A stretch of DNA of 20,050 bases from NCBI GenBank assembly GCA_964496765.1, contig CAZCAP010000007.1, positions 17,759 through 37,808 of the forward strand, in the 5' to 3' direction. The position numbers were made by a program, and so were the translations under genes. Within the stretch, counting starts at the first letter, position 1, and the number at the start of each line of letters is the position of its first letter. Shown one piece after another: positions 4,280-20,050 of this stretch. The notes beneath the pieces were generated by a model. It did not search any database. It saw nothing but the letters and a program-made list of their open reading frames with translations, and was not told where the DNA came from. This DNA is from an uncultured archaeon (GTDB taxonomy: Archaea; Iainarchaeota; Iainarchaeia; Iainarchaeales; CSSED10-239).

Positions 4280-4299
4280 ACTTCTAATTTGATTAGAGA

Positions 4300-4307
4300 A
4301 TATTTAA
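4300..4307 (-). promoter_or_regulatory. candidate archaeal TATA box for the 3662..4279 gene
   Basis: The minus strand reads TTAAATAT, centred about 25 nt upstream of the ATG at 4279. The spacing fits a leaderless transcript. Such motifs are common by chance in AT-rich DNA. Confidence 0.3.
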
Positions 4308-4317
4308 GAGAAAAAGA

Positions 4318-4325
4318 TTTATAAA
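4318..4325 (+). promoter_or_regulatory. candidate archaeal TATA box for the 4349..4687 gene
   Basis: TTTATAAA is centred about 28 nt upstream of the ATG at 4349, a spacing that fits a leaderless transcript. It lies in a 69-bp divergent intergenic region. Confidence 0.3.
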
Positions 4326-4348
4326 CCGTACTAGAGATTAATTTAGTT

Positions 4349-4687
4349 ATGGCAATTAACAAGAAAAGAAAAATAGAAGTGAAAAAGAAAACTAATAAAT
4401 CATCTATTAGCAAAGTTAACAAAGAAACTCATTTTAAGTTACTTAATAGAAACTGTAGAAAAGCATTCAATAAAACAATAGGTGAGCTTGTGGGGAACTA
4501 TAATCCATTCTTTGGTTCAAAGTATCCTCTGGAAATTAGAAATAAAGCCACAAAACATATGGTTACTTACATGTATGAAAAAACAAAGGTTAAAGCATTA
4601 CCTGAAACCAGAAAGGAATTCATACAACTTCTTGAAGAAGCAGGAGACTATGCACGTGTTAAGATAATCCAAGATATAAAGAATTAG
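4349..4687 (+). CDS. small basic protein, unknown function
   Basis: 112-aa ORF with a lysine-rich N-terminus (KKRKIEVKKKTNK). No motif recognised. Confidence 0.5.
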   Translation: MAINKKRKIEVKKKTNKSSISKVNKETHFKLLNRNCRKAFNKTIGELVGNYNPFFGSKYPLEIRNKATKHMVTYMYEKTKVKALPETRKEFIQLLEEAGDYARVKIIQDIKN

Positions 4688-4746
4688 TTTCTAATCATTA
4701 ATGCAAAATCACAAACACTATTTTTTGTTTAAAAAAGAAAAAGAAA

Positions 4747-5205
4747 TTAGTTGCTTTTAAATAAAGCAACCATATCCTTTTGTACTTGGAATAAATAGAT
4801 TATCATATATACAATAAACATAAAGTATATTGATATAATCAATGGTAAAAGTCCTACTAATCCTACTTTAAATAAAATTGTGAGGGCAATTATGAAATAA
4901 ATAATAGCTCCTGCTCCAGATATATATAACTGAATCAATAGCATTATTCTACCATAGTTCTTGAACTTCCATAACCCACAGGCCATGATACAAGAATATA
5001 GCCCACATACTAGGAAAAGACCACCCATAAACACTAATAGTCCCTGTGCACCAGTTACTGATAATGCAGACCCAAAAGTACCTATAAAAGTACTTTTTAC
5101 AAAAATGAACAAAAATCCAAATACAACAAGAAATATACCTATAACCCAATTATTTATAGAAACAAATCTTGTAATAAATTGACTTAAAGACCAATTTTCA
5201 AACAT
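4747..5205 (-). CDS. small integral membrane protein
   Basis: 152-aa ORF with 4 clear hydrophobic helices. No motif recognised. Confidence 0.55.
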   Translation of the reverse strand: MFENWSLSQFITRFVSINNWVIGIFLVVFGFLFIFVKSTFIGTFGSALSVTGAQGLLVFMGGLFLVCGLYSCIMACGLWKFKNYGRIMLLIQLYISGAGAIIYFIIALTILFKVGLVGLLPLIISIYFMFIVYMIIYLFQVQKDMVALFKSN

Positions 5206-5289
5206 ATATAATTTCTCCTTTTTTAATTTATATATTATTAAATTTAATTAAATCTGGAGGCATAATATTTAAAAAGAGTATTTTTTAAT

Positions 5290-5790
5290 TTACTTAATGT
5301 ATTTTTTATAATTTTTAACAAAAAAAGGAATATCTCTCCAAATGTTTCTTACCATTTGCCTATCATATATTTCATTTACGAATCCACCAAGTTCATCTAA
5401 AGCTTCATTATTATCTTTAACAGGTACCTTCTTGTTATAGCAAACCTCATAAAATAGAGGAGACTTATAATTAAATTTTTCCTTAATGTATTGCTGGTGA
5501 TTAGTGGCCATGGACACAACCAAATTAGAATTAGTTATTTGCTCCTGGTTTAGCTTTTTTCTTCTATGCTTGGAACAATCAATCCCAAGTGTTAAAAGTT
5601 CTTCCTTGACCTCATAGAGAATGTTTTGAGGGTTATTACCAGTCACCCCAGCAGATGTAACTTCAATGTTTTTAATCTTATTTAGTTCACAGTATTTTCT
5701 AAGACAATACTCTGCAATCATGCTTCTAAAAACATTCCCTGTACAAACAAATAATATTTTAGTTGGTTTCATATATATAATATATAGCAT
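5290..5790 (-). CDS. low-molecular-weight phosphatase family (LMW-PTP / ArsC-like)
   Basis: The N-terminal sequence ILFVCTGNVFRSMIAE contains the C-X5-R-S P-loop signature. The true start is probably the internal MKPTK (ATG at 5772). Confidence 0.75.
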   Translation of the reverse strand: MLYIIYMKPTKILFVCTGNVFRSMIAEYCLRKYCELNKIKNIEVTSAGVTGNNPQNILYEVKEELLTLGIDCSKHRRKKLNQEQITNSNLVVSMATNHQQYIKEKFNYKSPLFYEVCYNKKVPVKDNNEALDELGGFVNEIYDRQMVRNIWRDIPFFVKNYKKYIK

Positions 5791-5838
5791 TATATTTATA
5801 TTATGGAGTAAAATAGAATTAACAAGCCACTAATCAAA

Positions 5839-8475
5839 TCAAGATTCAATTACCCAAAATCTTTTTTTATTGTTTATTGCTTTTAGGATATCAAAAATTA
5901 TAATGAATAGGAATCCAACCCCGATTGCAACCAACCAAGAAGTTATTCCTAAAGGAATGGTTCCAAAAAGCTTATTTAGAGGAGTATAGATAATTGCAAT
6001 TGTTGCTAAAATAGATATTAAAGATGCAAAGAAAAGATATTTGTTTGTAACTAAAGATCTTCTGAATACGCCTTTCCTGAATGATCTATAAATAAAAGCA
6101 CCTAATATTTCAAGTAGGATTAAAGTTAATAGAGCTGTTGTGGTTGCATGAATTGCATCAAATCCAAGAACATTAAAAGTAACATAATAGACTATTAATG
6201 TAAATCCTGCAATTATTATACTTGAAAATAAAAGTAAAAATATTAGATTCTTGGTTAATATATTTCTTTTTTTTGGTCTCTCATCCATAATATCATTTGA
6301 GGAAGGATTAAAACCAAGAGCAATGGCTGGTAGATTATCAGTAACTATATTCATAAACAATATTTGTAAAGGTAGAAGAATTGGTATTGGCCATCCTAGG
6401 CTTGTGGCTAAAATCACACCAAAAATAATTATAAATAATTCTGCAAAATTACAGGACAATTGATAGGTCATAAACTTTCTTAGGTTTGCAAAGATAGTTC
6501 TTCCTTCTTTAACAGCAGTAACTATGGTTGCGAAATTATCATCCTTTAATGTTAGATCTGCAACAGATCTTGAAACATCAGTACCAGTTTTGCCCATTGC
6601 AACCCCAACATGTGCTTCCTTTAATGCAGGAGCATCATTTACCCCGTCTCCTGTCATAGTAACAACTTCACCATGGGCTTTGAGTGCTTTAACTATCCTT
6701 AGCTTATGCTCTGGTCTTACTCTTGCAAAAACAACAACATTTTGTATGATTTTGAATAGTTCATCATCGGTTAATGCATCCATTTCATTACCATCAATCA
6801 CCTCACCATCTAATATTCCAATTTCTTTTGCAATGGCTGTTGCTGTTTCCTTGTTATCTCCAGTAATCATCTTTATTTTTATTCCTGCTTTTTTACAAAA
6901 CAAGATTGTTTCTTTAACTTCTTCTCTTGGAGGGTCTTCCATTCCCACAAATCCAATAAATATTAAATCAGATTCTAGATTTTTACTATCTATTTGATAT
7001 GCAAAGCCTAGTGTTCTTAGTGCTTTTTTTGTCATGTTCCTATTGTTTTCTAGGATTTCATCTTTATCTTTCTTAGTTAACTTTGAAACCCTACCATTTC
7101 TATGAATAGATGTACAATGATTTAATAGAACCTCAACAGCACCCTTAACATAAACTGTTTTTGTGTTTTTTTCTAAAACAAGAACATTCATCATTTTTCT
7201 TTCTGAACTAAACGGAATTTCATTCTCTCTAATAACTTCGAAATCATCTTTGAATATTTCAACCTTTGAAGCAAGGATTAGAAGTGCTGCTTCTGTTGGT
7301 GTTCCGGATATTTTATAACTTAAATCATCTTCAACTTTTCTAATTATTGCATCATTACAAAGAACTGATGATTTTAAGATCAAAGATAATTCTTTATTTT
7401 TATTTAAATCTATTTTTTTATTGTTAAGCAGGATTTCTCCTTTACTTTCAAAACCAATTCCAGTAACATCATATAAATTATTATTTGCAAAAACAGTTTT
7501 TACGGTCATCTCTCCCTTTGTTATGGTTCCAGTTTTATCTGAACAGATAACAGTTGTTTCTCCAAGTGTTTCAATAATTGACATTCTGCTTACAATTGCA
7601 TTTTTTTTTGCCATTCTATAAGCTCCAGAAGATAGGGTAGTAATTAGAACCACTGGTAGGCCTTCAGGAAATGCAGAAACTGAAATTGCAATAACTAAAA
7701 TAATAACATCCACAATAATTGCTTTTGTAATGAAAGGGGTTTTTAATAAAACTAGTACACCAGTTAATACTGCAAGAGACAGAGCAATAAAAGCCATTGT
7801 CTTTGTAATCTTATTTATTTTATCCTGAAGAGGGAGTTCCTTTTCTGCAGATGAAATCATACCTGCAATCTCACCAAACTTTGTGTTCATTCCTGTGTGT
7901 GTAACCTTCACAATACATTTACCACTAACTATGAATGAACCCATATAAACTTTATTTTCATCAACATAGTTTTCTTTATCTTTAGAAACTAGTTTTTTAA
8001 TTTCTTTTGATTCACCAGTTAGAATAGCTTCATTAACTAATAAATTGTTTTCTGATAAAATAACTGCATCAGCAGGAATTCTTTCACCTGTTCTTAATAT
8101 TAGAATATCTCCAGGAACAATTTCTGAGGATAGTATTTCTTTTTCTTTTGAATCCCTAATAACTAAGGTATTTGGTACTATCATTCTCTTAAGTGCAGAC
8201 ACTGCTTTTTCTGCTTTATATTCTTGAATAAATCCAGCACCCACAACAAGTACAATTACTCCAATAATTGTATAGGCAGTTACTGATTTTCCAACTATAA
8301 ATGAGAGAATGGTTGCACAAAGTAATAGATAAACAATGAAATTATTTTTAACTTGTCTTAGAAGAATAGTTAACAGAGATACTTTATTAACATCAACAAT
8401 TTCATTTAAACCAAATGTAGTTAAATTTTGTTTTGCTTCCTGTGCAGTAAGTCCATTATATAGCATAAATATCAA
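5839..8475 (-). CDS. P-type cation-transporting ATPase (P2/Ca2+-type-like)
   Basis: 878-aa ORF with the motifs TGES (LTGESKEI), the phosphorylation site ICSDKTGTIT, MITGDN and the hinge TGDGVNDAPALK, plus N- and C-terminal TM bundles. Confidence 0.9.
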   Translation of the reverse strand: MIFMLYNGLTAQEAKQNLTTFGLNEIVDVNKVSLLTILLRQVKNNFIVYLLLCATILSFIVGKSVTAYTIIGVIVLVVGAGFIQEYKAEKAVSALKRMIVPNTLVIRDSKEKEILSSEIVPGDILILRTGERIPADAVILSENNLLVNEAILTGESKEIKKLVSKDKENYVDENKVYMGSFIVSGKCIVKVTHTGMNTKFGEIAGMISSAEKELPLQDKINKITKTMAFIALSLAVLTGVLVLLKTPFITKAIIVDVIILVIAISVSAFPEGLPVVLITTLSSGAYRMAKKNAIVSRMSIIETLGETTVICSDKTGTITKGEMTVKTVFANNNLYDVTGIGFESKGEILLNNKKIDLNKNKELSLILKSSVLCNDAIIRKVEDDLSYKISGTPTEAALLILASKVEIFKDDFEVIRENEIPFSSERKMMNVLVLEKNTKTVYVKGAVEVLLNHCTSIHRNGRVSKLTKKDKDEILENNRNMTKKALRTLGFAYQIDSKNLESDLIFIGFVGMEDPPREEVKETILFCKKAGIKIKMITGDNKETATAIAKEIGILDGEVIDGNEMDALTDDELFKIIQNVVVFARVRPEHKLRIVKALKAHGEVVTMTGDGVNDAPALKEAHVGVAMGKTGTDVSRSVADLTLKDDNFATIVTAVKEGRTIFANLRKFMTYQLSCNFAELFIIIFGVILATSLGWPIPILLPLQILFMNIVTDNLPAIALGFNPSSNDIMDERPKKRNILTKNLIFLLLFSSIIIAGFTLIVYYVTFNVLGFDAIHATTTALLTLILLEILGAFIYRSFRKGVFRRSLVTNKYLFFASLISILATIAIIYTPLNKLFGTIPLGITSWLVAIGVGFLFIIIFDILKAINNKKRFWVIES

Positions 8476-8632
8476 ATATATTTTAAGTATATAATCTTAT
8501 ATATATGGCTTTATAAATATATAGATTACTAATAAAATAAATCAACTCCATCTCCATATATTTATATTATTATCACATCATATTCTATTATCCGCATCCA
8601 AACAAAGCTTGCTGGGTAATATTTTAAATTAA

Positions 8633-9814
8633 GTGATAAAAATGGGATTTACTAATTTTTTTAAAAAAATAATACGGAAAGAACCAACTGTTGAATATAA
8701 GCCAACTATCAAAGAATTAACTTTCAATGAAATTAAGGATTTAATTAAAAATAAGGAGACAGAAATTAATACTAGGGAAAAGGAAGTTTTTGTTTTAATT
8801 AAAAATAGAGCAAGCTCATTTGTTAGAGATATAAATCACAAAGTTAGAAATTTAGAAAGCACAGATGTCGAATCAAAGGACACCAATGAGAGAATAAAAT
8901 CAATTGTAAAAACAAATTTAAATAAGTATATAGAGCACGTGAAAAAACTTATAGAAGAAATAGATAACCTGAATGAAGATAATTTTGAACATTTTATTAA
9001 ATGGGTAAATAATCTCTTCATTGATTTTGAAAAAAAGTCCTATGTTAATTATCACAGAGCTGTTTTCTTGATAGGGCAAGATTTAATTGACATCAGAAAG
9101 AACATAGCTGACTTTTCTAAATCTTTAATAAGCATATTAGATAAAAACAAAGAAATAATAGGATCTTCTCGTCAGATTCATGCAATTCAACAAAAAATAA
9201 AACAAGTCTTTGAAGCCAATGAAGTTATTAAAGGATTTGATGAAAGAATTAATTTATTAAATGACAAAACAAAAGATCTAGAAAAAATTAATCAAACTCT
9301 GGATAATAAAATTAAAGAAATTAAAGAAAATAAAAGTCATAAAGAAAATATAAGACATAAAGAAAAAATAAAGGAAACAGAAAAAAATTTAAAAGAAGAA
9401 ATACATGAATTTAAAGGATTAATTGACTTTAAAGAATTAGGTAATATATTTCATAGTGAAGAGAAAAAAACAAAAATAATAAGAGCCTATAAAGAAAGGT
9501 TTGAAGAAACCTATTTAGAAGATAATGGAGCAAGCATTCTTCTCCTTCTTGATGAAGCAAAACTAAACACTAGTGGAATCTCACTTAAAATAAAGCAAAT
9601 CAACACTAAAAGAGAAGAACTAATTGTGCAGGAGTCAACCATTAAAAAAGACGAAACAGAAGATTTGTTAATTGAAATTAATAAAATCAAACTAGAAATT
9701 GAAAAACTAAAAACCGAAAAAGACGATGATTTAAAGAAAAGTGAAAAAATTAAACAACAAAGAGAAAAGATAATAAGTTCAATAAAACAAGAGTTAGCAA
9801 AAATGAACAAATAG
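8633..9814 (+). CDS. long coiled-coil protein, unknown function
   Basis: K/E/I/N-rich heptad-like sequence throughout. The track ORF starts at GTG 8633, but the ATG at 8642 (MGFTNFF) is the more likely start. Confidence 0.55.
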   Translation: MIKMGFTNFFKKIIRKEPTVEYKPTIKELTFNEIKDLIKNKETEINTREKEVFVLIKNRASSFVRDINHKVRNLESTDVESKDTNERIKSIVKTNLNKYIEHVKKLIEEIDNLNEDNFEHFIKWVNNLFIDFEKKSYVNYHRAVFLIGQDLIDIRKNIADFSKSLISILDKNKEIIGSSRQIHAIQQKIKQVFEANEVIKGFDERINLLNDKTKDLEKINQTLDNKIKEIKENKSHKENIRHKEKIKETEKNLKEEIHEFKGLIDFKELGNIFHSEEKKTKIIRAYKERFEETYLEDNGASILLLLDEAKLNTSGISLKIKQINTKREELIVQESTIKKDETEDLLIEINKIKLEIEKLKTEKDDDLKKSEKIKQQREKIISSIKQELAKMNK

Positions 9815-9822
9815 TTTATCAA

Positions 9823-10599
9823 TTACCTATTGATTTTATGTACATCAACACCAAATAGTTTAAGTTTAAAATATTTTTGTAATTCAATTCCGGTTTTGTT
9901 AATTTTAAGATTTATTTGCCAATTTTCTATGCCTTTTTTTGCAGCCTGCTTTGCCGCTGTTCTTACAACATTATTTGTATTATCTGATTTTGGAGGAGTA
10001 AATGCAGGTGCATCATAAATGAATGCTAAAAGAACAATTGCTCTGTGATTCTTAATATCTGTAGATAGATCATTAAAATGTTTAATTAGTCTATCAAAAG
10101 AATTAAATTTGGTTTTTGGCTTTTGTAAAATAAAATCAGATTTTGAGTTTTCAAAAGGGAAAGAAATGAGAGGCATCTTAACTTCAAGATAGGTGTTATC
10201 AATTAGGAAATCAATTCTAGAGTTACCTAACCTTTTTTCTCTGGATATATTTTTTCCTGTTATCATTTTAGGCAAACAATTATTTTTTATAAAAAATTCA
10301 ACATAGACATTTATTTTTGTTTGATTTATTCCTATCCAAGTCTTATTTTTTCTACTAATTGAATCAAGAGAAATAGCTTCAACCGTGTATCTTGTTTTTC
10401 TATTAAGATTATCACTTTCAGAAAGAAGACAAGGAACATCAGAAAAATGAATTTCACCAATTCTACCAGTAACTGGACAGTGACATTTGAAAACCCCATT
10501 GCTTATTTGAACATTCATTATAAATCTATTTGGTCTAGATTTTATAACACCTTCAATAAGGGGTTTTTGAAATTTATATATTAAACTCATAGTAAACAA
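9823..10599 (-). CDS. sfsA: SfsA-family protein (sugar fermentation stimulation protein homologue, nuclease-fold)
   Basis: The N-terminal LIEGVIKSRPNRFIMNV matches the remembered SfsA start (..R.KRF...V). The size of about 250 aa and the later RIDFLI...YLEVK segment are also typical. Confidence 0.65.
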   Translation of the reverse strand: MFTMSLIYKFQKPLIEGVIKSRPNRFIMNVQISNGVFKCHCPVTGRIGEIHFSDVPCLLSESDNLNRKTRYTVEAISLDSISRKNKTWIGINQTKINVYVEFFIKNNCLPKMITGKNISREKRLGNSRIDFLIDNTYLEVKMPLISFPFENSKSDFILQKPKTKFNSFDRLIKHFNDLSTDIKNHRAIVLLAFIYDAPAFTPPKSDNTNNVVRTAAKQAAKKGIENWQINLKINKTGIELQKYFKLKLFGVDVHKINR

Positions 10600-10630
10600 A
10601 CCTAAAAGAAAATAAAAAGTAGTTAGAAAA

Positions 10631-10828
10631 CTACTTTTTAAAAACCTTTATTAGTGGTACAATTACAAATAGAATGAATAATATTAGATAATAATACCAA
10701 TCTAAAGACAGAATTACTGGCCATAATTTTGCTAGCATAAGAGCAAAGAAAAGAACTGATAATTTCACCAAAGATATGTCATACCAATGCATAGTTTTTA
10801 TTTTGTCATCAAAAGATTTAAAACACAT
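10631..10828 (-). CDS. small two-helix membrane protein
   Basis: 65-aa ORF with two hydrophobic helices. This is the last chromosomal gene before the left att repeat. Confidence 0.4.
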   Translation of the reverse strand: MCFKSFDDKIKTMHWYDISLVKLSVLFFALMLAKLWPVILSLDWYYYLILFILFVIVPLIKVFKK

Positions 10829-10960
10829 ATAAAATCACCTCAATAAATTAGAATAATCATTTAATTTATAAATCTTTGTTTCAAGCAATTTTAGCAAATT
10901 TTTTGCAATATTTAAATTTTATTCATTTAAACCATCATCTTTTTAATTATTTCTTTTATA

Positions 10961-11251
10961 TTATATAGGATAGTGTTTAAAGCCACTTACAGCAAACTGC
11001 TGACCAGAATTAGAGATGCCTCGAACCAGATTTGGACTGGCGGTCTCCAGATTATGAGTCTGACTTTGACAAGCGTAAGCTGTGTGTAGTGTATAGTCTG
11101 TAGAACCACTGAACAAAGCAACCTTCAACAATTGCCTAACCATTTTAGATATATTAATATGCTTAGCTTTCAAATAATCATACGTATGTTTATCTAAATT
11201 TATTTCAATTCTCTTTAATTCTTGCTCAGATTCAATCTTTTTTTCGGTCAA
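10961..11251 (-). CDS. integrase N-terminal fragment int(N), RHH-like, reading through the att repeat
   Basis: 96-aa ORF. RIEINLDKHTYDYLKAKHINISKMVRQLLKVAL has a strand-helix-helix (ribbon-helix-helix) look. The C-terminal QTHNLETASPNLVRGISNSGQQFAVSGFK is the att sequence translated in the same frame as at the right end. Only the last 4 codons (HYPI) are chromosomal. Confidence 0.8.
   Translation of the reverse strand: MTEKKIESEQELKRIEINLDKHTYDYLKAKHINISKMVRQLLKVALFSGSTDYTLHTAYACQSQTHNLETASPNLVRGISNSGQQFAVSGFKHYPI
10974..11062. repeat. left att repeat (partial tRNA-Met 3' copy plus 43-bp flank)
   Basis: Identical at 89/89 positions to 19957..20045 in a base-by-base comparison. Positions 11017..11062 duplicate the tRNA 3' 46 nt. 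The sequence beyond 11062 is not tRNA-like. Confidence 0.95.
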
Positions 11252-12149
11252 CTCGTTTCTCCTCCTTAGGGGTTATATTTAGTAATGCTATTAATAATAT
11301 GTCTGTTGGGGTAAACATCTGCAATCCTTTTGGAGTTTCTTTTTGCATAATGTCGGAAGCAAAAATAGCAGATAGCTCAGGAAAATGAATGACATCAATA
11401 TTAGCGATATCCATTATGTCTTTATTATTAATTGACCTCAATATCCAACTTAACAATGCTTCATTATAACTGTTTAATTTTAGATTAAGAGAACATTCTT
11501 CGCAGATTTTTTTAATTGCAGATTTTAAATTTCTTTTTTTAATTGCATTAAATTTAAGATTATTAAACTTCTCTCTTGCAGATTCTAATTGTTCTCCAAA
11601 AAAAGCCCTCCCTAAAAAATCAAAAATACAATTCATTTCATATGCTCTTTTAATCAAATCAAGTATATTATTTTTAAGGTCATAAGAAAATCTAGAGCTT
11701 GGAACACGCCTATAGTTAAAAGTTTTAAAATAGTTATATAAATAATCTTTTTGAACAGCTGTTAGTTTAATACTTGGATAAAGTTCTTCTAACCAGTTCA
11801 ATTTAGGAATATACACCCAATTATTTTTTTTCTTATCAATCCAATTGAGCGTCATTTTATTTTTTACAATAGTATATGGTACTTCCTTATTAACATCCTT
11901 GTCAAATATATACTTGCACACAAAACGTTCTTCAGACCCATAATCAAAAAATAACTTTGTTTTATTTAGGTCATTAAAAACAGTTGAAGATTGTCCACTT
12001 CCTTTAGGATATAATATTGCCTTTATATCTTTTTGGGTAAGCCATTTACCTTCTTCAGACCCATACACAAAAATAGTAAACAATATTTTACTAGAGATGT
12101 CATCTTCTAAAAGTTTTAATATATTTTTATTTTCATTCATTAAATTCAC
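11232..12149 (-). CDS. hypothetical protein of the element, possible N-terminal wHTH
   Basis: 305-aa ORF whose stop overlaps the int(N) start by 20 nt, suggesting coupling. The N-terminus ILKLLEDDISSKILFTIFVYGSEEGKWLTQKDIKAIL looks HTH-like. No firm motif. Confidence 0.6.
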   Translation of the reverse strand: MNLMNENKNILKLLEDDISSKILFTIFVYGSEEGKWLTQKDIKAILYPKGSGQSSTVFNDLNKTKLFFDYGSEERFVCKYIFDKDVNKEVPYTIVKNKMTLNWIDKKKNNWVYIPKLNWLEELYPSIKLTAVQKDYLYNYFKTFNYRRVPSSRFSYDLKNNILDLIKRAYEMNCIFDFLGRAFFGEQLESAREKFNNLKFNAIKKRNLKSAIKKICEECSLNLKLNSYNEALLSWILRSINNKDIMDIANIDVIHFPELSAIFASDIMQKETPKGLQMFTPTDILLIALLNITPKEEKRVDRKKD

Positions 12150-12161
12150 TCATTCATTTAT

Positions 12162-12188
12162 AATACTGCTTTTCTTAAAAACAGTATT
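12162..12188. promoter_or_regulatory. inverted repeat AATACTG-N13-CAGTATT in the divergent control region (candidate operator)
   Basis: A perfect 7-bp inverted repeat sits 13-39 nt upstream of the ORF305 start. The 10-mer TAATACTGCT recurs exactly at 12261..12270. Confidence 0.35.
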
Positions 12189-12324
12189 GGACTACTAAAT
12201 TATAAAATTTCAGTAAAATTCTATAGGAATATAACCTTCTTCATACATAAGTTTAATATTTAATACTGCTACAGGTCTAAAAGACTGACACAGTAATATA
12301 ATGTATGCAATGAAAAGTTTTTAA

Positions 12325-12576
12325 ATGGATGTGGGATGCATGAATTTAAATCAAGTTACAGGGTTGCCGATAGGTAGACTCAGAGAGAAATACCTTGTAT
12401 TAATTATAAAAGAACCTAAAAGCTTTATAACAAAATGTAAGTCTCTTGACCTTCCAGTTTATTTTGACCAACAAAAAGTTTATCTTTTTGAGAAGAACAT
12501 CTGTTATTGTTATTTTTATAATAATGATGCTAAGTTTATTCTTGGCGCATTAAAAGGGAGAGGTATAGCTCAATAA
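12325..12576 (+). CDS. small hypothetical protein of the element
   Basis: 83-aa ORF and first gene of the rightward unit. An alternative start is MNLNQ. The segment VTGLPIGRLRE is weakly HTH-like. Confidence 0.45.
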   Translation: MDVGCMNLNQVTGLPIGRLREKYLVLIIKEPKSFITKCKSLDLPVYFDQQKVYLFEKNICYCYFYNNDAKFILGALKGRGIAQ

Positions 12577-12623
12577 GTATGTTACCTATGGGATGTATGT
12601 GACATATGTTTTAAGTTTTATTT

Positions 12624-12631
12624 TTTATATA
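12624..12631 (+). promoter_or_regulatory. candidate TATA box upstream of the helicase gene
   Basis: TTTATATA lies about 43 nt upstream of the ATG at 12671. This is weak evidence in AT-rich DNA. Confidence 0.25.
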
Positions 12632-12670
12632 GAAAAAAGATAAACTAATAGTAACATTAAGAACAAGTGG

Positions 12671-14245
12671 ATGTGTGGATATATGATTGAAGAAGATAGT
12701 ACTAAATTCTTACTAAGAAGAATGGGTGAGCTTAACAAAGATGGGGCATTAGATAGAAAGTTTGAACAAGAACGATTCGAAAGGGAAGCACTTACAATTA
12801 CTAAAAGAAATGAAAGAGGCTTATCCGATTGGGGAATTGGATATCCATTGGAAGAAGATGGCAGATATTCTATGATAGTCCCTCAATTACAAGATTGGAA
12901 GATGCTACAAGAGAAGTATCTTAAAGACAAGCCACTCCTCTTTGACAATCAACAGATATGGTGGGCTTGGAATCCTAAAGATTGTTGCTGGCAACCTACT
13001 GATGAAACAAGCATATTACTTAATTTTGACCAATCTATTACATTATCTGACCAGCACAACAGCATACAACCTCTTACAAAAAATATAATTTTAGAAGCAC
13101 TTAAACGAGCATCCAGAAAAAATTATGATGAAATAAAACCTATAGAAAAAACATGGGTCGTATTTAAAGATACTATTGTAGATTTGTCTCAAAGTTTAGC
13201 ATTCCCAAATAATCCTAAGTATTTTGCAACTAATGTTATTCCTCAAAATGTTTTAAATTTACAATCCACAGAAACGCCAGTAATAGATAGATTGTTTAGA
13301 GAATGGGTTGGAAATAAATACGTTCCAACACTTTATGAAATTATTGCATATTCAATGTTATCTGATTATCCAATCCATAGACTATTTTGTTTGATTGGCT
13401 CAGGTCGAAATGGAAAATCTACTTTCATTAACTTATTATTAAATTTTATAGGTAATCCAAATAGCACATCTGTTGAATTGGAAACGCTGACAAATAATCC
13501 TTTTACATCCTCAAAGTTATACAAAAAATTAATCTGTCTTGTAGGAGAAACAAACTTTAATTTACTTAGGAATACAGAGATTATTAAAAAATTAACAGGT
13601 CAAGACCCTATCCCTGCTCAATTTAAGCATAAGGGGTTATTTGATTTTAAAAACTTTGCTAAAATAATAATTGCAACAAACTCCTTACCTCAATCCCTTG
13701 ATAAGACTGGTGGATTCTATTCCAGATGGCAAATAATCGATTTTCCAAATCGATTTTCAGAAGTAAAAGATGTTTTAGCTGATATCTCAGAACAAGAATA
13801 TGAAAACTTAGCAAGAAAATGTATTCTTATCCTACAAAAGTTATTAGTAACCAGAAAGTTTACTAATGAAGGAACATTAGAACAGAGAATGCAAATTTAT
13901 GAAGATAAAGCTAATCCTTTACAAAAATTCATTAGAGAATATTATGATTACAATAGTCAAGAATATGTGATTGGATTCGAATTTTATAATCTATTTAGTT
14001 ATTTCTTGAAGAATAATGGAAGTAGGGCATTATCAAGAATAATAGTTACACAAATGCTAAGGGAAGAAGGTATTGAACCAAAAAAAGAGAGAGTAGATTT
14101 TAAAGGGGAAGAAAAGCAATGGGTTGTTTATTGGGGATTGAAATTAAAAAACAAGAATCAAGAGGGATTAAATAAATATATTAACACTACAGAAAATAAT
14201 AAAGAAAAAGTGGGTGATATAAATGCAGGACTTCAAGAATCTTAG
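12671..14245 (+). CDS. SF3 helicase, D5 / P4-primase C-terminal family (replication protein)
   Basis: Walker A in the typical context LFCLIGSGRNGKSTFINLLLNFIG. Walker B-like KKLICLVGE. Motif C-like IIATNSLP. The upstream W-rich region (IWWAWNPKDCCWQPTD) resembles the D5_N linker. No primase catalytic motif was seen. Confidence 0.75.
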   Translation: MCGYMIEEDSTKFLLRRMGELNKDGALDRKFEQERFEREALTITKRNERGLSDWGIGYPLEEDGRYSMIVPQLQDWKMLQEKYLKDKPLLFDNQQIWWAWNPKDCCWQPTDETSILLNFDQSITLSDQHNSIQPLTKNIILEALKRASRKNYDEIKPIEKTWVVFKDTIVDLSQSLAFPNNPKYFATNVIPQNVLNLQSTETPVIDRLFREWVGNKYVPTLYEIIAYSMLSDYPIHRLFCLIGSGRNGKSTFINLLLNFIGNPNSTSVELETLTNNPFTSSKLYKKLICLVGETNFNLLRNTEIIKKLTGQDPIPAQFKHKGLFDFKNFAKIIIATNSLPQSLDKTGGFYSRWQIIDFPNRFSEVKDVLADISEQEYENLARKCILILQKLLVTRKFTNEGTLEQRMQIYEDKANPLQKFIREYYDYNSQEYVIGFEFYNLFSYFLKNNGSRALSRIIVTQMLREEGIEPKKERVDFKGEEKQWVVYWGLKLKNKNQEGLNKYINTTENNKEKVGDINAGLQES

Positions 14246-14573
14246 ATTGTGGCAGTTAGCCAGAGAGTTTGTTAGTGATATATATAAGCTAACAACCACC
14301 TTCCCAAGCCACGAGCTCCACTCTATGACTAACCAGCTCAGAAGAGCAAGTTACAGCATACCCTCAAACATAGCGGAAGGCTCTGGAAAAGGTAGCCAAA
14401 AGGAATTTAAGAGATATTTAAGTATAGTTAGTGGCTCAATAAAAGAGGTAGAATGTTTTTTAATATTAGCAAGGGACTTGAACTACATCAATGAACAACA
14501 ACTGACTGAACTTACCCAAAAGTTAGAAATTATTGGAAAGATGAATAGTAAGTTAACAAATAAATTATACTGA
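14223..14573 (+). CDS. four-helix-bundle protein (23S rRNA intervening-sequence / Avd-like family)
   Basis: FKNLRLWQLAREF...LRRASYSIPSNIAEGSGKGSQKEFKRYLSIVSGSIKEVECFLILARDL matches the remembered family consensus (W..A......IY..T..FP..E...L..Q.RRA..SI..NIAEG.....KE...FL.IA.GS..E). It overlaps the helicase 3' end by 23 nt. Confidence 0.8.
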   Translation: MQDFKNLRLWQLAREFVSDIYKLTTTFPSHELHSMTNQLRRASYSIPSNIAEGSGKGSQKEFKRYLSIVSGSIKEVECFLILARDLNYINEQQLTELTQKLEIIGKMNSKLTNKLY

Positions 14574-15710
14574 ATCTTTAGATTCATTAATCTGTGATTT
14601 TATTTTAGGATAATTGTTAACAAAACTATCTTCTCCGAACCAGTGGCTAACTTTTTCAAATAAATTACAAGCCATTTCATCTAAATTAGAATAGTCTTTA
14701 CAGTCGATACCCTCTATTATATAATTTATATCTATCCCAATTAATTTATTTTGATTAGGTAAAATTATGTTTTCAGGATTAACAAAACCAATTTTAAGAG
14801 ATATTTGCGGATTCCTATTAATCTTTTTATAATAACTTCTATAGGATTTTAAAAAGAAACCTAATGATATATACATTGCATCAGAATCCAATTTATATTT
14901 ATTAGATGGGGTTGTTTGCGGAATTGTTCTTATCAATAATAACTCACCTTTATCTAAAAAAGATATGATGCCATTATCACCCATTCTTTTAAATTTGATT
15001 TTTACTCCAAAATAATCTTTATTATAATCTGACAACTCAAACCCACCATTTATAGATGATGTCATGATTCTAATTATCTCAGAACTCAAAAGAAAATTAT
15101 CCATTTCAAAAGCAGGTTGAATAAGAAAAAAGAAAGAAGGACTTATTCCATTAAATTTTAATATAACATTTTCTAAAATAAATTGTTCTCTTTTTTTCAG
15201 AACTTCTCTTAATTCTAATCTATCTTTATATAGATTATATATTTCTCTTTCAGATAATGGTATATATTTACCTTTTACTTGAGTTGATAAACTTCCTATA
15301 GATGTACCTTCTCGCTTATAATAAATATAATCCTTCAGATGCATATGTGGGGCAAGATTACTTCTTGGGATATCAATAATTAAATAAAATAAATTTTGGT
15401 CATCATCTTTTGAAATTTCATATGTTTCATAAAAAACAGTTCCAGAAATCCCGTTTCTTATCCAATCACTAATTTTTCGTTTATACAAATCTAATTTCGC
15501 TTTATCTATCCCTATTAGTACACCCTTATCAGATACTCCAAAAATAATAGAACCCCCTTTTTCAGAATTTGCAAATCCGGAGACGTATTTCATTATTTTA
15601 GTGTTTGCATCTAAATTTATTAAAAATTGCTCATCTTTATATTCAATATCATCTTGTTCGTCATGCTGTACAATTTGTTTTAAATGTTCAAAATCTTTAA
15701 TATAACTCAT
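14565..15710 (-). CDS. AlbA_2 / Schlafen-core (divergent AAA) domain protein with unknown C-terminal half
   Basis: The N-terminal 140 aa read EQDDIEYKDEQ...IMKYVSGFANSEKGGSIIFGVSDKGVLIGID...YYKREGTS. This fits the AlbA_2 pattern E.K......I.AFAN..GG.I.IGV.D.G...G....R.G..T. The remaining ~230 aa are unrecognised. Confidence 0.7.
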   Translation of the reverse strand: MSYIKDFEHLKQIVQHDEQDDIEYKDEQFLINLDANTKIMKYVSGFANSEKGGSIIFGVSDKGVLIGIDKAKLDLYKRKISDWIRNGISGTVFYETYEISKDDDQNLFYLIIDIPRSNLAPHMHLKDYIYYKREGTSIGSLSTQVKGKYIPLSEREIYNLYKDRLELREVLKKREQFILENVILKFNGISPSFFFLIQPAFEMDNFLLSSEIIRIMTSSINGGFELSDYNKDYFGVKIKFKRMGDNGIISFLDKGELLLIRTIPQTTPSNKYKLDSDAMYISLGFFLKSYRSYYKKINRNPQISLKIGFVNPENIILPNQNKLIGIDINYIIEGIDCKDYSNLDEMACNLFEKVSHWFGEDSFVNNYPKIKSQINESKDSV

Positions 15711-15855
15711 AATATCAACTCATATTATATATATTACGATTAGGTTTAAATACATTGTTTTTGAGTTATAATTAATAATTTATTACATCTCATACAATAA
15801 ATTATCTTCCAGTTTCAATTATTGTTTTCGATAAATTACAGAGTTTATAATTGCG

Positions 15856-17238
15856 TTATAAAAAATTAATTTCTATGAAAATTCTATAATCTTTGATTAA
15901 TGTGTGCGAGGACTTATACACTATAAAACAATTGTAACAATTATTTTTTATAGCATTAATAAGTTTTGATTTATTTTCAAAATTTTTAGCAATATATCCC
16001 AAAAGTTTACCTTCATACAATATTTTGATTGCTGTCGAATCATATTTGTTAGTAGGTTCATATTTTAATATCAAATTACTCTTATCTAAAATTGAATCTA
16101 AATAATTCACGGTTAAATCTCTATATTGAATTCCTTTAATTATAGTTATGTGAGACAATGGTATTCTTTCTGGTGTAATATTATTAATTTTTAATAAAAT
16201 ATATTTAATATTTGATTTAAATTTAATGAATTCATTAAACCAATATTTTTGAAGCACAGATAATTGGTCTGTTTGTGATTTAACTTCTACAAAATATACT
16301 TTATTTTCTTTTTTATTGTATATAAATAAATCAGGCATACCTGCAGTGTGAGTTGCCAAAAAAGTAATGGTTTTATTTGGTAACTTATCAACACATCTTT
16401 TTAATTCATTATCAGAAATAGCTAACGTTGAAAACACATTCTCTAGTGTTTGATTATTGGAAATAACAGAATAAATTGCTAAATATTTATTATTTTTATA
16501 ATATTCAATTGCATAATCTTCTAAATTACATATTTTATTACTGTATTCAACCAGAAATTTACTTCTAAACCATTCTTTGTTTATTCCAACATATTTAATA
16601 GTTATGATTTCAGATTTAATTAATTTTTTATTTTTTTCAAAAGTGTTAAGTATTTCTGCTTCATTTTCAAATTGTATACTAAAATTTAAATCAAAATTAA
16701 TATCTATTTTACCATTATCAAAAGGTAGTTGATTACGTTTTTGTTTAATATTTTCTGTAAATATTAAATTGCCTTTTTTATACTTTTCTTTGATATAATT
16801 TATATCTTTTTCAAGAGTAATTGACTTATCTATAAAATTTTTTCTTTTATTATTTATAACATTCCCAAAATCAGTAATGTACTCAATTTTATCTTCATTA
16901 ATAGGATATTTTTTTACAAATGGTTTAATGGTTATATTTTTTGATTCGTTCTCAATTTTTAGTGATAATTGGTTATTTTGTCTTACTAATACATCTTCTT
17001 GTTCCTGTTGTTGTTTTTGTTTTTCTAATCTGTCTTTTTGCTTTTGCTTTTCAGAGTTTTTATATTTAATAAACTCTTTAATTGATGCAATTAATATTGA
17101 AGGTCCAATAAATATTAACCAAAATAAAACCCAACTGCTGTGGTTTAATCCTACAACTGCACCAATAGTTAACCCAAAGAATAATAATACCAAATATACC
17201 CCGAACATTTCCATATCAATTACCAATTTATTAAACAC
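15856..17238 (-). CDS. membrane-tethered FAN1-like VRR-NUC nuclease fused to a C-terminal HIRAN domain
   Basis: Two N-terminal TM helices are followed by a basic/QK coiled segment. The nuclease motif is HTAGMPDLFIYNKKENKVYFVEVKSQTDQLSVLQKYWFNEF (PD...EVK...Q, VRR-NUC). The C-terminal IKGIQYRD...LILKYEPTNKYDSTAIKILYEGKLLGYIAKN fits HIRAN (L.REP.N.YD..AI.V......GY). Confidence 0.75.
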   Translation of the reverse strand: MFNKLVIDMEMFGVYLVLLFFGLTIGAVVGLNHSSWVLFWLIFIGPSILIASIKEFIKYKNSEKQKQKDRLEKQKQQQEQEDVLVRQNNQLSLKIENESKNITIKPFVKKYPINEDKIEYITDFGNVINNKRKNFIDKSITLEKDINYIKEKYKKGNLIFTENIKQKRNQLPFDNGKIDINFDLNFSIQFENEAEILNTFEKNKKLIKSEIITIKYVGINKEWFRSKFLVEYSNKICNLEDYAIEYYKNNKYLAIYSVISNNQTLENVFSTLAISDNELKRCVDKLPNKTITFLATHTAGMPDLFIYNKKENKVYFVEVKSQTDQLSVLQKYWFNEFIKFKSNIKYILLKINNITPERIPLSHITIIKGIQYRDLTVNYLDSILDKSNLILKYEPTNKYDSTAIKILYEGKLLGYIAKNFENKSKLINAIKNNCYNCFIVYKSSHTLIKDYRIFIEINFL

Positions 17239-17374
17239 AATTCAATAAAAATAAACTTATCTAATTAGTTTTATTTAAATCTAATCTTATCAGTTACTTT
17301 TGCAATATAGTCAGTAACTTCTCTTCCTTTAATTCTTATTTCTACTAGATATTTTTTATTTTTAAAATTTGAAA

Positions 17375-18487
17375 TTATTGTATTGCAATTACTTTTGAAG
17401 TAGTTGCAATAATATTTTGGTCAGCACCTGTTCTTAAATCCACTTTCAATACATATTGCCCTTCAGATAAAGTTAACAGTCCTTTATTGACATCATTTCT
17501 ATCATAACCAATTAGATAATCTGACTGTGACCCATTATACTGGGCAGGAATTGAATGTAAATCAAAAGGTGCATTTATATCTTTATTTACAATGACCCCT
17601 TCTTTTAAAATAGAAACATCAAAATTTGGATTAGATAATTTGAAAAAACCATTATTTTTAATGTTAATTTTAAAAACTATAAGAACACAATCACCTGATT
17701 CTTCAAAACAACGAGGAGTATAATCTATAATAGACAATTCAACAACAGGATTTGGAGTCATTTCTTTTATTACATTAGATTTAGGAATCTGCTCTTGAAA
17801 TAATTTTATATATGATTTAATATCTTCTTTAATTGGGATAATATCAAAGTTAAAAATAGAGTTAAATAAATCTGTTTGGTCACTAGTATAATTATTTAAT
17901 CGAGTTAATTCAGTATTATTTACTGTAACTGTTTGATTTAAAAGTTCTAACTGTGTATCAATATCTTCAACAGATTCTAATTTATTATAAATTGCATTTA
18001 TATTTTCTGAAAAATTATCTGCACTATAAATAAAATCCACAAATTCTTTGTAAATATCCATATTATAATCATTACTTAATTTAGTTACTGCTTTATTCAT
18101 TTGTTCGACTCTAGTTTTTCTAATATCGTAATTTGTGGTGATATCATAAATATCATTGGATTCAAGATTAATTGAAAGCCATGCTGAAAGCATATCTTTA
18201 TACTCTTTCGTTTCTTCTAATTTTAATTTAACACAAGTATTAATATTTTGATTATTTTGTTGTAATTCTTTACATACAAAAAACGTATCACAAGGAACAT
18301 CCAAACAACAATTTTCTTGTGTTTCTCCTTTTTCTAGGATATTATTTCCACAAATTGCTTTAGAACTCGGTTTGGAAAATTTATCTGCATTGCTTAAACT
18401 ATTAAATAAAATAAATAATATAATTCCAACTAAAATTACAGCCCCAACAATTATACCAATCAATTTTAAATTTTTATTTTTAGCCAC
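17375..18487 (-). CDS. membrane-anchored, Cys-rich extracellular protein
   Basis: The N-terminal anchor is LKLIGIIVGAVILVGIILFILF. It is followed by the cysteine cluster CGNNILEKGETQENCCLDVPCDTFFVC...C and a beta-rich-looking C-terminal domain. Confidence 0.6.
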   Translation of the reverse strand: MAKNKNLKLIGIIVGAVILVGIILFILFNSLSNADKFSKPSSKAICGNNILEKGETQENCCLDVPCDTFFVCKELQQNNQNINTCVKLKLEETKEYKDMLSAWLSINLESNDIYDITTNYDIRKTRVEQMNKAVTKLSNDYNMDIYKEFVDFIYSADNFSENINAIYNKLESVEDIDTQLELLNQTVTVNNTELTRLNNYTSDQTDLFNSIFNFDIIPIKEDIKSYIKLFQEQIPKSNVIKEMTPNPVVELSIIDYTPRCFEESGDCVLIVFKINIKNNGFFKLSNPNFDVSILKEGVIVNKDINAPFDLHSIPAQYNGSQSDYLIGYDRNDVNKGLLTLSEGQYVLKVDLRTGADQNIIATTSKVIAIQ

Positions 18488-18599
18488 ATTTACCCCTCAC
18501 TGTATATTATAACTATTTACCATAACATTTTTAACTTAATCCTTAACTTAACTCAGAGCTTGTTATTGGTTATTATATTTCGAAGTCAGTAATAGTATT

Positions 18600-18872
18600 A
18601 TGGATAACAGCCAGCTAATAGCAAAGATACTTAGAAGTAAACTTAAACAAAAAGTATTATTAGAGATAAGTAAAGAAAAGGTTACACAAGCACAGTTATC
18701 CAAAAGATTTAATCTATACAGAAGTCATATTAATGAACTAATTACTGACTTATTAAAATCTAATCTAATTATTTGCCTTAATCCTAAAGATAGGGATTAT
18801 AAATTTTATGAGATAACCAAATTAGGCAAAGATATCTTAGCTTCTGTGGATAAGATAAAGAAAGAATTATAG
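18600..18872 (+). CDS. small winged-helix transcription regulator (ArsR/MarR-like)
   Basis: 90 aa. VTQAQLSKRFNLYRSHINELITDLLKSNLI reads as an HTH and YKFYEITKLGKDIL as a wing. It is divergent from the surface-protein gene. Confidence 0.6.
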   Translation: MDNSQLIAKILRSKLKQKVLLEISKEKVTQAQLSKRFNLYRSHINELITDLLKSNLIICLNPKDRDYKFYEITKLGKDILASVDKIKKEL

Positions 18873-18987
18873 TTTATAGATTAGGACTACCTACTCTCAA
18901 GGAGAGGTCTTCTATCTCCATTATTTGCTTCTTTTTGAGTGTTTATGTTTGTTAACTAATAGGTAATCTACAATTGTCTCTATATAT

Positions 18988-19020
18988 ATTGCGTGTATAT
19001 ATCTTATTGTGTGTATATAT
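18988..19020. repeat. two 15-bp direct repeats ATTG(C/T)GTGTATATAT within a TA-alternating tract
   Basis: 18988..19002 and 19006..19020 differ at one position. (TA)n runs flank them at about 18979..19032. They lie in a 312-bp non-coding gap between convergent gene ends. Confidence 0.7.
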
Positions 19021-19184
19021 TATATATATATTAGACTGTTGATTTATGTTCTCTTATTCTCTAGTTTGTTTACTTTTTCTAAGAGATTACCTTACCCAAT
19101 ATATTAATTACATAAATTACACTATTTGCTAATAGTTAATAGTTGGGCATCTCCTTCTAAGATACACTGCCTTCACAAGCTACA

Positions 19185-19856
19185 CTAATTACTAATAAAA
19201 ATATTCAAATAAGCTATTAACTTCTCTGAATAGAACTTATCTGCTAACATCTGTCTTGAAAGATAATGATTACTACCTACTGAATTAGCAGTTCTGCCTT
19301 GATAATAATCTGCTATTGATTCTGGAACCCCTAATTCAATACATTTAGTATAGAACCACTTTCTACAATATTTTATTGGTATTAATTTCTTTCTTTTTAT
19401 TTCTGCTTCTAAGCTTCCTACAGATAATTGCTTGTGGTCTGTGGACAATCTATTATATACTCCCAAAGGTAGATAACAAAAGTAACTATTCTTATTATGT
19501 CTTAGATAGTTCATAGTAATCTTAGTGAATCCATCTAATTGTTGACACTTCAAGCTATCTATTTTTTCTAAAAGATACTCTCCCTCTACTTTTCTTACTC
19601 CTGATACAAGATACATTAGATATATTAGTTTATTTTTAGTAGTTAGTTTGAATAGGGTTTGTTGTATCTCATTATCTGTTGGAACATAAGTATCTTGCTT
19701 TGATGGATTAGAAAAGTTAAGTAGTTTCTTTATAGGTAAGATATCTGTTTCTGTGACTTTATGTTTCTCTTGTAGATATTTCAATAACAAGGATACAAGA
19801 ATAACTGTATATCTTGTTTCTTTTATCTTACTTATGTTCTTCAGTAGATAATCCAT
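19185..19856 (-). CDS. integrase C-terminal catalytic fragment int(C), tyrosine recombinase (SSV-type)
   Basis: The track ORF is 223 aa from an internal ATG. The frame has no stop upstream, through 19857..19956, through the att repeat and on to the window edge. Candidate catalytic residues are SGVRKVEG (Arg), KYCRKWF (xxR), YQGRTANSVGSNHYL (Arg ... Tyr nucleophile). Confidence 0.8.
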   Translation of the reverse strand: MDYLLKNISKIKETRYTVILVSLLLKYLQEKHKVTETDILPIKKLLNFSNPSKQDTYVPTDNEIQQTLFKLTTKNKLIYLMYLVSGVRKVEGEYLLEKIDSLKCQQLDGFTKITMNYLRHNKNSYFCYLPLGVYNRLSTDHKQLSVGSLEAEIKRKKLIPIKYCRKWFYTKCIELGVPESIADYYQGRTANSVGSNHYLSRQMLADKFYSEKLIAYLNIFISN

Positions 19857-19956
19857 TAGTTCTTGAAAATCATACGTATGTTTTGGGAAAATAAGAGGTA
19901 TTTTGTTGATTAGGTCTCTCTTGTATTGCTTACAGAAGTCTTGGTCGTTAATCCAC

Positions 19957-20045
19957 TGTTTAAAGCCACTTACAGCAAACTGCTGACCAGAATTAGAGAT
20001 GCCTCGAACCAGATTTGGACTGGCGGTCTCCAGATTATGAGTCTG
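19957..20045. repeat. right att repeat, embedded in the intact tRNA-Met gene
   Basis: Identical at 89/89 positions to 10974..11062. It continues at 20046+ into tRNA-like sequence (..AGCGC). Confidence 0.95.
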
Positions 20046-20050
20046 GCGCT
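20000..20050 (-). tRNA. tRNA-Met or Ile2 (anticodon CAU), 3' two-thirds; 5' part lies beyond the window
   Basis: The reverse complement reads AGCG-CCAGA-CTCATAA-TCTGG-AGACC-GCCAG-TCCAAAT-CTGGT-TCGAGGC-A. That gives an anticodon arm with CAT, a 5-nt variable loop, a T arm, the acceptor 3' strand and discriminator A at 20000. It is not initiator-like: there are no three G-C pairs in the anticodon stem. Confidence 0.75.

Follow-up and report, generated by a model that had tools for sequence, protein, structure and literature searches.

SSV-type integrases of archaea, which are characterized by the active-site signature R...KxxR...Y (PMC8371274), occur in a so-called suicidal arrangement, in which the attachment site of the mobile element (attP) lies inside the integrase gene (int) and integration splits this gene into two fragments, int(N) and int(C) (PMC7253208, PMC8371274). 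Both fragments are stated to be inactive in the published work (PMC8371274). Elements related to the integrative plasmids pT26-2 and pTN3 have been found integrated in Thermococcales, Archaeoglobales and Methanosarcinales (Badel et al. 2020, PMC7253208), and suicidal integrases of the SSV type have been regarded as belonging mainly to hyperthermophilic archaea, besides a few examples from the Methanosarcinales (PMC7253208, PMC8371274). The 2021 review of archaeal tyrosine recombinases makes no mention of DPANN archaea (PMC8371274), and no description of SSV-type or suicidal integrases in this group was found in the searchable literature, the coverage of which excludes a 2024 survey of DPANN mobile elements. 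The present analysis deals with a 20,050-nucleotide stretch of archaeal DNA, hereafter the window, in which the interval 11063-19956 together with one copy of its attachment site (att), corresponding to a circle of 8,983 bp, is very probably a mobile element integrated in the genome of an AT-rich DPANN-type archaeon, equipped with an SSV-type integrase and carrying attP inside its own int gene. The observations made directly are the perfect repeats at its borders, a complete tRNA gene, an open reading frame (ORF) restored by rejoining the integrase halves, the signature of the integrase family and an exact empty site in the same population.

The element is bordered by two direct repeats (10974-11062 and 19957-20045) which are identical at 89 of 89 positions, as stated in the initial annotation of this DNA. 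Identity breaks off at both edges, G facing C at position -1 and ACTTT facing GCGCT at positions +1 to +5. The chance expectation of such an 89-nucleotide pair in the window is about 4e-39, and the next-best direct repeats found there reach at most 47 nucleotides with about 70% identity. On the 110-kb parent contig of the window, ena:ERZ27248961:k141_165059 (L001, whose coordinates equal those of the window minus 8599), ARAGORN calls a complete 73-nucleotide tRNA-Met(CAT) gene on the minus strand at window positions 20000-20072 (L001 11401-11473); the extension beyond position 20050 that had been proposed as a check has accordingly yielded the expected tRNA. The 73-nucleotide sequence folds into a cloverleaf, and its in-window portion, with the 5' end cut off, scores 34.8 bits in Rfam for a gathering score of 29. 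Identity between the repeats begins at tRNA position 28, i.e., in the anticodon stem, and the tRNA and Rfam searches of the window gave no tRNA call at the left repeat. As had been suggested, the element has integrated into a tRNA-Met(CAU) gene, in its 3' part, and the tRNA has been regenerated; this is borne out by the complete tRNA at the right attachment site (attR) and by the presence of only the 3' 46 nucleotides at the left one (attL). With respect to the identity of this CAU-anticodon tRNA, the G1-C72 pair and the non-initiator anticodon stem point to an elongator type, either tRNA-Met or the archaeal tRNA-Ile2 (CAU modified to agmatidine).

The recombinase halves noticed earlier at the two ends of the element rejoin into one integrase gene. 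On the minus strand, the succession of 11251-11063, one att and 19956-19185 forms a single ORF of 349 codons devoid of stops and frameshifts, in which att occupies codons 64-92 plus two bases of codon 93. The rejoined protein matches PF16795 (Phage_integr_3, 'Archaeal phage integrase') over residues 182-337 with 97.1 bits for a cut-off of 27, and the integrase family phrog_5127 of PHROGs with an E-value of 4.3e-34. Its catalytic residues consist of R214, K288-xx-R291 (K288-Y-C-R291), R314 and H323-Y324, among which R214, K288-Y-C-R291 and Y324 show no variation when the protein is aligned with 20 relatives and with SSV1 Int. Among annotated proteins, it comes closest, at 24-34% identity, to the integrases of SSV1 and other fuselloviruses, of Aeropyrum viruses, of an Archaeoglobus pleomorphic provirus, of pT26-2, of a Pyrococcus plasmid and of a small Sulfolobus plasmid. 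From its sequence, the split recombinase is classed as an archaeal SSV-type (type I, 'suicidal') tyrosine integrase.

The site without the element has also been found. Two contigs from the neighbourhood of SfsA, L012 (ERZ27248895) and L014 (ERZ27248953), lack the element and show RpiA, tRNA-Met, a 65-amino-acid ORF and SfsA adjacent to one another. The empty-site sequence of 663 nucleotides predicted from the window occurs in both of them with 0 mismatches, so that the search for an empty site proposed at the outset turned out positive; the tRNA is intact at this site and, in blastn alignments, the two flanks overlap there in exactly one 89-bp att. Occupied copies, 99.9-100% identical, occur in at least 5 other assemblies (ENA, JGI, Logan), and both of the samples that gave the empty site also yield contigs of the element (L041, L005). 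Owing to the exact empty site in two independent assemblies, the element can be regarded as polymorphic in the population. Moreover, over kilobases, the flanks of the occupied allele and those of the empty one agree at 99.9-100% identity, and the gain or loss of the element, a recently mobile one, must therefore be very recent. The last 119 nucleotides of L014 (2221-2339) fail to align with window positions of about 9625-9743, inside a host ORF of 393 amino acids (8633-9814), a mismatch which suggests strain-level variation or a contig-end error.

In the mechanism proposed here, the integrase would recombine attP, starting at int codon 64, with a chromosomal site made of the tRNA-Met(CAU) gene from the anticodon stem to the 3' end and of the next 43 nucleotides. 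The crossover would take place where the identity begins on the tRNA side, in the anticodon stem-loop, and would result in a regenerated tRNA with int(C) located directly downstream in the same orientation, and in an int(N) of 63 codons at the far end. The free form may be a small plasmid replicating by means of a P4/D5-type helicase of superfamily 3 (SF3), with the Avd-like and winged-helix proteins as probable accessory components, whereas the middle block, comprising an AlbA_2 protein, a membrane-anchored VRR-NUC/HIRAN nuclease and a surface protein, would represent exchangeable accessory or defence-like cargo. Excision would require that an intact integrase be provided in trans or that the 89-bp repeats recombine through the homologous recombination of the host.

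The 43 att nucleotides located past the tRNA (10974-11016, 19957-19999) had been described as tRNA-downstream flank. They do lie downstream of the tRNA in both copies but, rather than ordinary flank, they are integrase-gene sequence encoding residues 79-92 of the integrase (ISNSGQQFAVSGFK). The same DNA follows the tRNA in the int(C) of four relatives inserted at tRNA-Ser(GCT) and tRNA-Ser(GGA) (L051, L056, L072, L126). DNA identity of this module amounts to 80-96% in 30-nucleotide windows, as compared with 63-68% for int(C) overall and 50-56% for the next windows, and residue F86 is invariant even with respect to SSV1. In complete relatives, the repeat stops 2 nucleotides beyond the tRNA and the module is present on the element side only. 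The empty-site contigs carry the 43-nucleotide module, and to the left of attL no similarity to the integrase extends beyond these 43 nucleotides. Since a duplication of this kind is beyond conservative site-specific recombination, the present insertion must have met a chromosome that already held this piece of the integrase gene, and the module is either the footprint of an earlier occupant or a functional site at the DNA level. Whether it is an arm or binding site or the remnant of a former occupant, the module lengthens the repeats from about 49 to 89 bp, and it is conceivable, although rather doubtful, that host homologous recombination could then excise the element without any integrase. 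If true, this would provide a route out of the 'suicide trap' which puzzles work on suicidal integrases, and would mean that elements mark sites for re-use. In this respect, the 43 integrase-derived nucleotides found in the empty site constitute a concrete lead as to how an element with a split integrase leaves.

Table 1. Features of the element and of its tRNA target, in window coordinates (aa, amino acids; nt, nucleotides).
Feature	Position	Strand	Basis or remark
attL, left 89-bp direct repeat	10974..11062	-	43 integrase-derived nt (10974-11016) and promoter-less copy of the tRNA-Met 3' 46 nt (11017-11062)
int(N), first 63 codons of the split integrase, with N-terminal segment resembling ribbon-helix-helix proteins (RIEINLDKHTYDYLKAK)	11063..11251 (listed ORF 10961-11251)	-	homologous to the N-termini of integrase P0067 and of the pT26-2 integrase
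305-aa protein with N-terminal winged-helix-like domain; candidate regulator or origin-binding protein	11232..12149	-	AlphaFold2 model
78-83-aa ORF, first in the rightward operon	12340..12576	+	no family match in Pfam, PHROGs, NCBIfam
524-aa replication protein, C-terminal domain of P4-family primase, D5-like SF3 helicase	12671..14245	+	PF19263, PHROGs, TIGR01613, PDB 7ola
116-aa four-helix-bundle protein (23S rRNA intervening sequence protein/Avd-like), overlapping the end of the helicase gene	14223..14573	+	PF05635 1.1e-36; TIGR02436
381-aa cargo protein with N-terminal Schlafen/AlbA_2 domain	14565..15710	-	PF04326 9.5e-17
460-aa cargo protein with two N-terminal hydrophobic helices, charged coiled region, VRR-NUC nuclease domain and weak HIRAN	15856..17238	-	PF08774 4.8e-10; PF08797 4.9e-4, below cut-off
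370-aa membrane-anchored Cys-rich protein	17375..18487	-	homolog P0074 (34%); 28% match in L051
90-aa winged-helix (MarR/HTH_45-like) regulator, beside int(C)	18600..18872	+	Pfam, NCBIfam
int(C), catalytic part of the split integrase	19185..19956 (stand-alone ATG ORF 19185-19856)	-	PF16795, phrog_5127, alignment with SSV1 Int
attR, right 89-bp direct repeat	19957..20045	-	43-nt integrase-derived module (19957-19999) and functional tRNA 3' 46 nt (20000-20045)
tRNA-Met(CAU) target gene	20000..20050 in the window, to 20072 outside	-	ARAGORN, Rfam, cloverleaf fold

Ten genes account for 89% of the 8,894 unique bases of the element (Table 1). The SF3 replication helicase recognized initially is confirmed by the agreement of four sources for the 524-amino-acid protein, namely PF19263 (1.4e-18), TIGR01613 (131 bits, cut-off 108.7), the 'DNA primase' families of PHROGs (up to 2.4e-47) and PDB 7ola (1.4e-14); searches of Pfam, PHROGs and NCBIfam detected no primase or prim-pol domain in its residues 1-160. 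A diversity-generating retroelement was considered for the Avd-like protein and discarded because no reverse transcriptase domain occurs in any protein of the element; no suitable repeat pair was found either, and the Avd equivalog model scores 32.9 for a cut-off of 80. The gene of the 305-amino-acid protein overlaps the start of int(N), and both therefore probably belong to a single operon. This protein has 9 homologs, all remote, among 1.8 billion proteins and no family match in Pfam, PHROGs and NCBIfam. Its AlphaFold2 model, of moderate quality (predicted local distance difference test, pLDDT, 64.9; predicted template modelling score, pTM, 0.68), associates a winged-helix N-terminus with a helical domain. 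Foldseek comparison of this model with PDB and BFVD gave nothing below E = 0.4, only generic resemblances to winged helix-turn-helix proteins and no viral structural match. The single-sequence AlphaFold2 model of the 370-amino-acid protein (pLDDT 36.7) is unusable. Its single homolog, P0074, sits in another region resembling a mobile genetic element, in an archaeal metagenome-assembled genome (MAG; L043, GCA_043824355.1, 2663-12733), where it adjoins a 543-amino-acid DUF4352 protein; a classical PF00589 integrase and an HNH protein occur in the same region. In the divergent intergenic region between the 305-amino-acid gene and the helicase operon, a 12-nucleotide inverted repeat (AATACTGCTTTT / AAAAACAGTATT, at 12162-12188) is a possible operator.

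The integrase has numerous relatives. The search returned 72 proteins, all with PF16795, two of which are named 'Candidatus (I)ainarchaeum sp.'. Among species-representative genomes, the closer relatives (45-80% identity) belong to Candidatus Iainarchaeum MAGs and other archaeal MAGs, and the remoter ones (27-37%) to Thermoplasmatota MAGs. A tRNA gene abuts the 5' end of int(C) in 33 of the 54 metagenomic loci and is co-oriented with it in 31 of these 33. By locus count, and with L091 taken as Thr, the co-oriented tRNAs comprise Thr(GGT) (10), Ser(GCT) (8), Met(CAT) (5), Asp(GTC) (3), Ser(GGA) (3), Arg(CCT) (1) and Gln(TTG) (1). Complete relatives, in which an int(N) stands at the far end, include L079 (9,650 bp, tRNA-Met, 49-nucleotide repeat) and L072, and far-end int(N) fragments have been recognized in L079, L086, L072 and L108. 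Intact integrase genes were seen only in two distant relatives, L015 and L017, the latter with a weak primase-like match; in the intact integrase P0067 of L015, the tRNA 3' end lies in frame within the int ORF.

Apart from the integrase, the Avd-like gene is the most conserved gene of the family, and it follows a putative replication gene of about 520 amino acids with no reverse transcriptase nearby. Copies 74-81% identical occur in L028 (9436-9783), L051 (9851-10174) and L064 (5354-5701), and L127 (14081-14434) has the gene at the same position as in the present element. Homologs of the winged-helix gene stand beside int(C) in seven loci (L023, L025, L028, L047, L051, L075, L079). Depending on the relative, the variable middle block contains a Shedu protein (SduA_C), a type III methylase and Res pair and a NucS-like/DUF5655 protein (L028, 223-9419), or a Mrr-type endonuclease, LemA, NUDIX and 2'-5' RNA ligase proteins (L127, 7768-14036), and L079 combines an AlbA_2 protein with an AAA_25 helicase. 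In L028 and L127, the recognizable defence genes are located between the integrase end of the element and its Avd-like gene. Two loci display additional arrangements. In L064 (Ga0172371_10009210), the region 2173-11049 is a tandem array at tRNA-Thr(GGT), with a first int(C) at 2253-2903; the int(N) of this first element, at 10001-10204, is directly followed, in a different frame, by the int(C) of a second element at 10213-10998, which makes a hybrid int(N)-att-int(C) junction. In their hybrid-integrase model, Badel et al. 2020 (PMC7253208) have proposed junctions of this type. In L072, two full tRNA-Ser(GGA) genes are present, at 115-198 (int(C) end) and at 5742-5826 (about 750 nucleotides past the int(N)/att end), besides a 46-nucleotide att repeat at 4950.

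With respect to the host, its flanking DNA has a GC content of 28.5%, as compared with 26.9% for the element. The genes o205, tRNA-Glu(CTC) and MFS stand in the same order in the window and in a Candidatus Iainarchaeum MAG (46% identity for MFS). The right flank, with RpiA and four further genes at 41-68% identity, shows synteny with L021, where the orthologous tRNA-Met is occupied by an element with an integrase 72-75% identical. On account of this synteny, the host is most likely a DPANN archaeon near Iainarchaeota, resembling Candidatus Iainarchaeum.

Among the other explanations of the locus, a repeat created by the assembly or belonging to a larger segmental duplication, as envisaged in the initial annotation, has practically no probability left. 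It amounts to a general possibility, to which may be added that the Logan k=31 contigs all break 30 nucleotides inside the repeat; against it, independent assemblies (megahit k141, JGI) run through attL, through both att copies or through the empty site, the recurrence of the same arrangement in ENA, JGI and Logan assemblies excludes an artefact, and the identity ends abruptly on both sides, confined to 89 bp, with sensible junctions (complete tRNA, in-frame integrase). The abrupt edges, the exact empty site and the spanning assemblies refute this explanation. A trapped and immobile genomic island, with a dead split integrase and with the empty-site contigs representing an ancestral lineage that was never occupied, is improbable as well: the repeats are perfect, the 349 codons of the rejoined int ORF are uninterrupted, the flanks of the two alleles are too similar for anything but a very recent gain or loss, and element and empty-site contigs were found together in two samples. 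What speaks for such an island is that the integrase is split, its fragments being published as inactive (PMC8371274), and that the circular form was not found in the collections scanned for DNA, which exclude the source samples.

A provirus, i.e., a small temperate archaeal virus of, e.g., pleomorphic or spindle-shaped type, with too divergent virion proteins and with the 370- and 305-amino-acid proteins as structural components, is an unlikely though not negligible alternative. Its attraction lies in the SSV-type integrases, which are typical of fuselloviruses, guttaviruses and one pleomorphic provirus, in the size of 9 kb, within the range of small archaeal viruses, in the three unassigned genes and in the weak A32-like ATPase match of the distant intact relative L015. 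However, Pfam, PHROGs and NCBIfam gave no match to capsid, portal, terminase or packaging proteins, so that the earlier statement that no capsid gene is recognizable holds good, and no packaging ATPase, spike or small ORF for a two-helix hydrophobic capsid protein was found in the element, in which the ten genes, by covering 89% of the sequence, leave no room for hidden small ORFs. In PHROGs and Pfam searches, the VP1-like small hydrophobic major capsid protein and the morphogenesis genes of Fuselloviridae were not found, and the spike, internal membrane protein and nucleoside triphosphatase of Pleolipoviridae-like viruses had no match, very divergent versions of these being possible. Furthermore, the modelled winged helix and helical domain of the 305-amino-acid protein resemble no viral structural protein, IMG/VR contains 0 relatives of the helicase and only 1, distant, of the integrase, and the relatives swap their replication genes and carry defence cargo, which is the behaviour of plasmids or islands. 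A helper-dependent satellite, able to replicate and integrate by itself but spread through packaging by a co-infecting virus, like pSSVi or pSSVx, is clearly less probable still, since neither a homolog of known helper-virus genes nor a candidate helper virus was identified. The element does share the make-up of pSSVi, which is small and possesses an SSV-type integrase and its own replication protein but no virion genes, and the integrase of a small Sulfolobus plasmid (H23) is among its nearest annotated relatives. Because no capsid or packaging gene was detected, the element is most likely an integrative plasmid; the modular gene content, the exchange of replication genes among relatives and the absence of virion genes speak for small integrative plasmids which form a family and bear defence-like cargo.

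Several points weigh against an integrative plasmid with the properties proposed here. The protein collection contains no full-length integrase of the element at 90% identity or more, and an exact scan of metagenome_contigs and viral_contigs with the 43-nucleotide att flank returned 0 attP junctions, a result which is uninformative on attP because the source samples lie outside both collections. For want of an attP junction or a full-length integrase gene of the element, an episomal stage can only be presumed. Contig ends were considered as evidence for an episome and set aside as uninformative, since the break of all Logan contigs 30 nucleotides inside att is expected for k=31 at any repeat and since L041 ends 4 nucleotides before att. 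No function can be assigned to three of the ten genes, among which virion proteins of an unfamiliar type may be hidden. No primase was identified in the element and, apart from the palindrome at 12162-12188 and weak AT-rich repeats, no iterons or origin were identified in it. The putative defence role of the cargo derives from domain names and from the cargo of the relatives; PADLOC gave only marginal matches to unrelated models on the element (E >= 6.6e-4, 15-18 bits), none of them significant, and assigned no known defence system. The host taxonomy, finally, derives from synteny at 42-68% protein identity, not from marker genes.

Occupied and empty alleles in one population, together with dozens of relatives at tRNA-Thr, Ser, Met and Asp genes, make this locus a clean case. 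As it shows, a family of small integrative elements with suicidal chemistry is common in genomes like that of Candidatus Iainarchaeum, and its members shuttle nuclease and restriction-type cargo among very small genomes. The polymorphic population, in addition, offers a natural system for the question of how a split integrase gene gets out again.

Compared with the described systems, the mechanism is that of SSV1, pTN3 and pT26-2; the anatomy is classical and the element is of a known kind. Like SSV1, it possesses a PF16795 catalytic domain with the R...KxxR...Y signature, uses the 3' part of a tRNA gene as a target and has int(N) and int(C) at its borders, and the annotated 44-bp integration site of SSV1 starts at int codon 64, as att does here. 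It differs from SSV1 by the low identity of the proteins (only 23-30%), by the lack of the fusellovirus structural genes, by a low-GC DPANN-like host instead of a thermoacidophilic crenarchaeon, and by an att identity of 89 bp instead of the annotated 44 bp. With the integrative plasmids pT26-2 and pTN3, it shares the plasmid-type organization, the suicidal integrase and the tRNA 3'-end targets, but it has a P4/D5-type helicase and belongs to a different host phylum. The match with the pT26-2 integrase extends over 93% of the protein and takes in the N-terminus, at 24% identity, and in both cases closely related integrases use different tRNAs and the protein segment encoded by att is variable. 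However, int is antiparallel to the tRNA in pT26-2 and co-oriented with it here, and pT26-2 measures 21.6 kb with an att identity of 51 bp, as compared with 9 kb and 89 bp for the present element. The Sulfolobus plasmids of the pSSVi/pXZ1 type are similarly small (6-9 kb), non-conjugative replicons with an SSV-type integrase, inserted in tRNA genes and devoid of virion genes, and H23, the integrase of a 6,970-bp S. islandicus plasmid, matches the integrase found here, whereas their replication protein and their remaining genes bear no relation to those of the present element. As for the replicons with a P4-family primase-helicase, which occur in phages, satellites and plasmids, the 524-amino-acid protein resembles them in passing the TIGR01613 cut-off and in matching PDB 7ola, a 'DNA primase', but differs by its N-terminal 160 residues, which contain no detectable primase or prim-pol domain.

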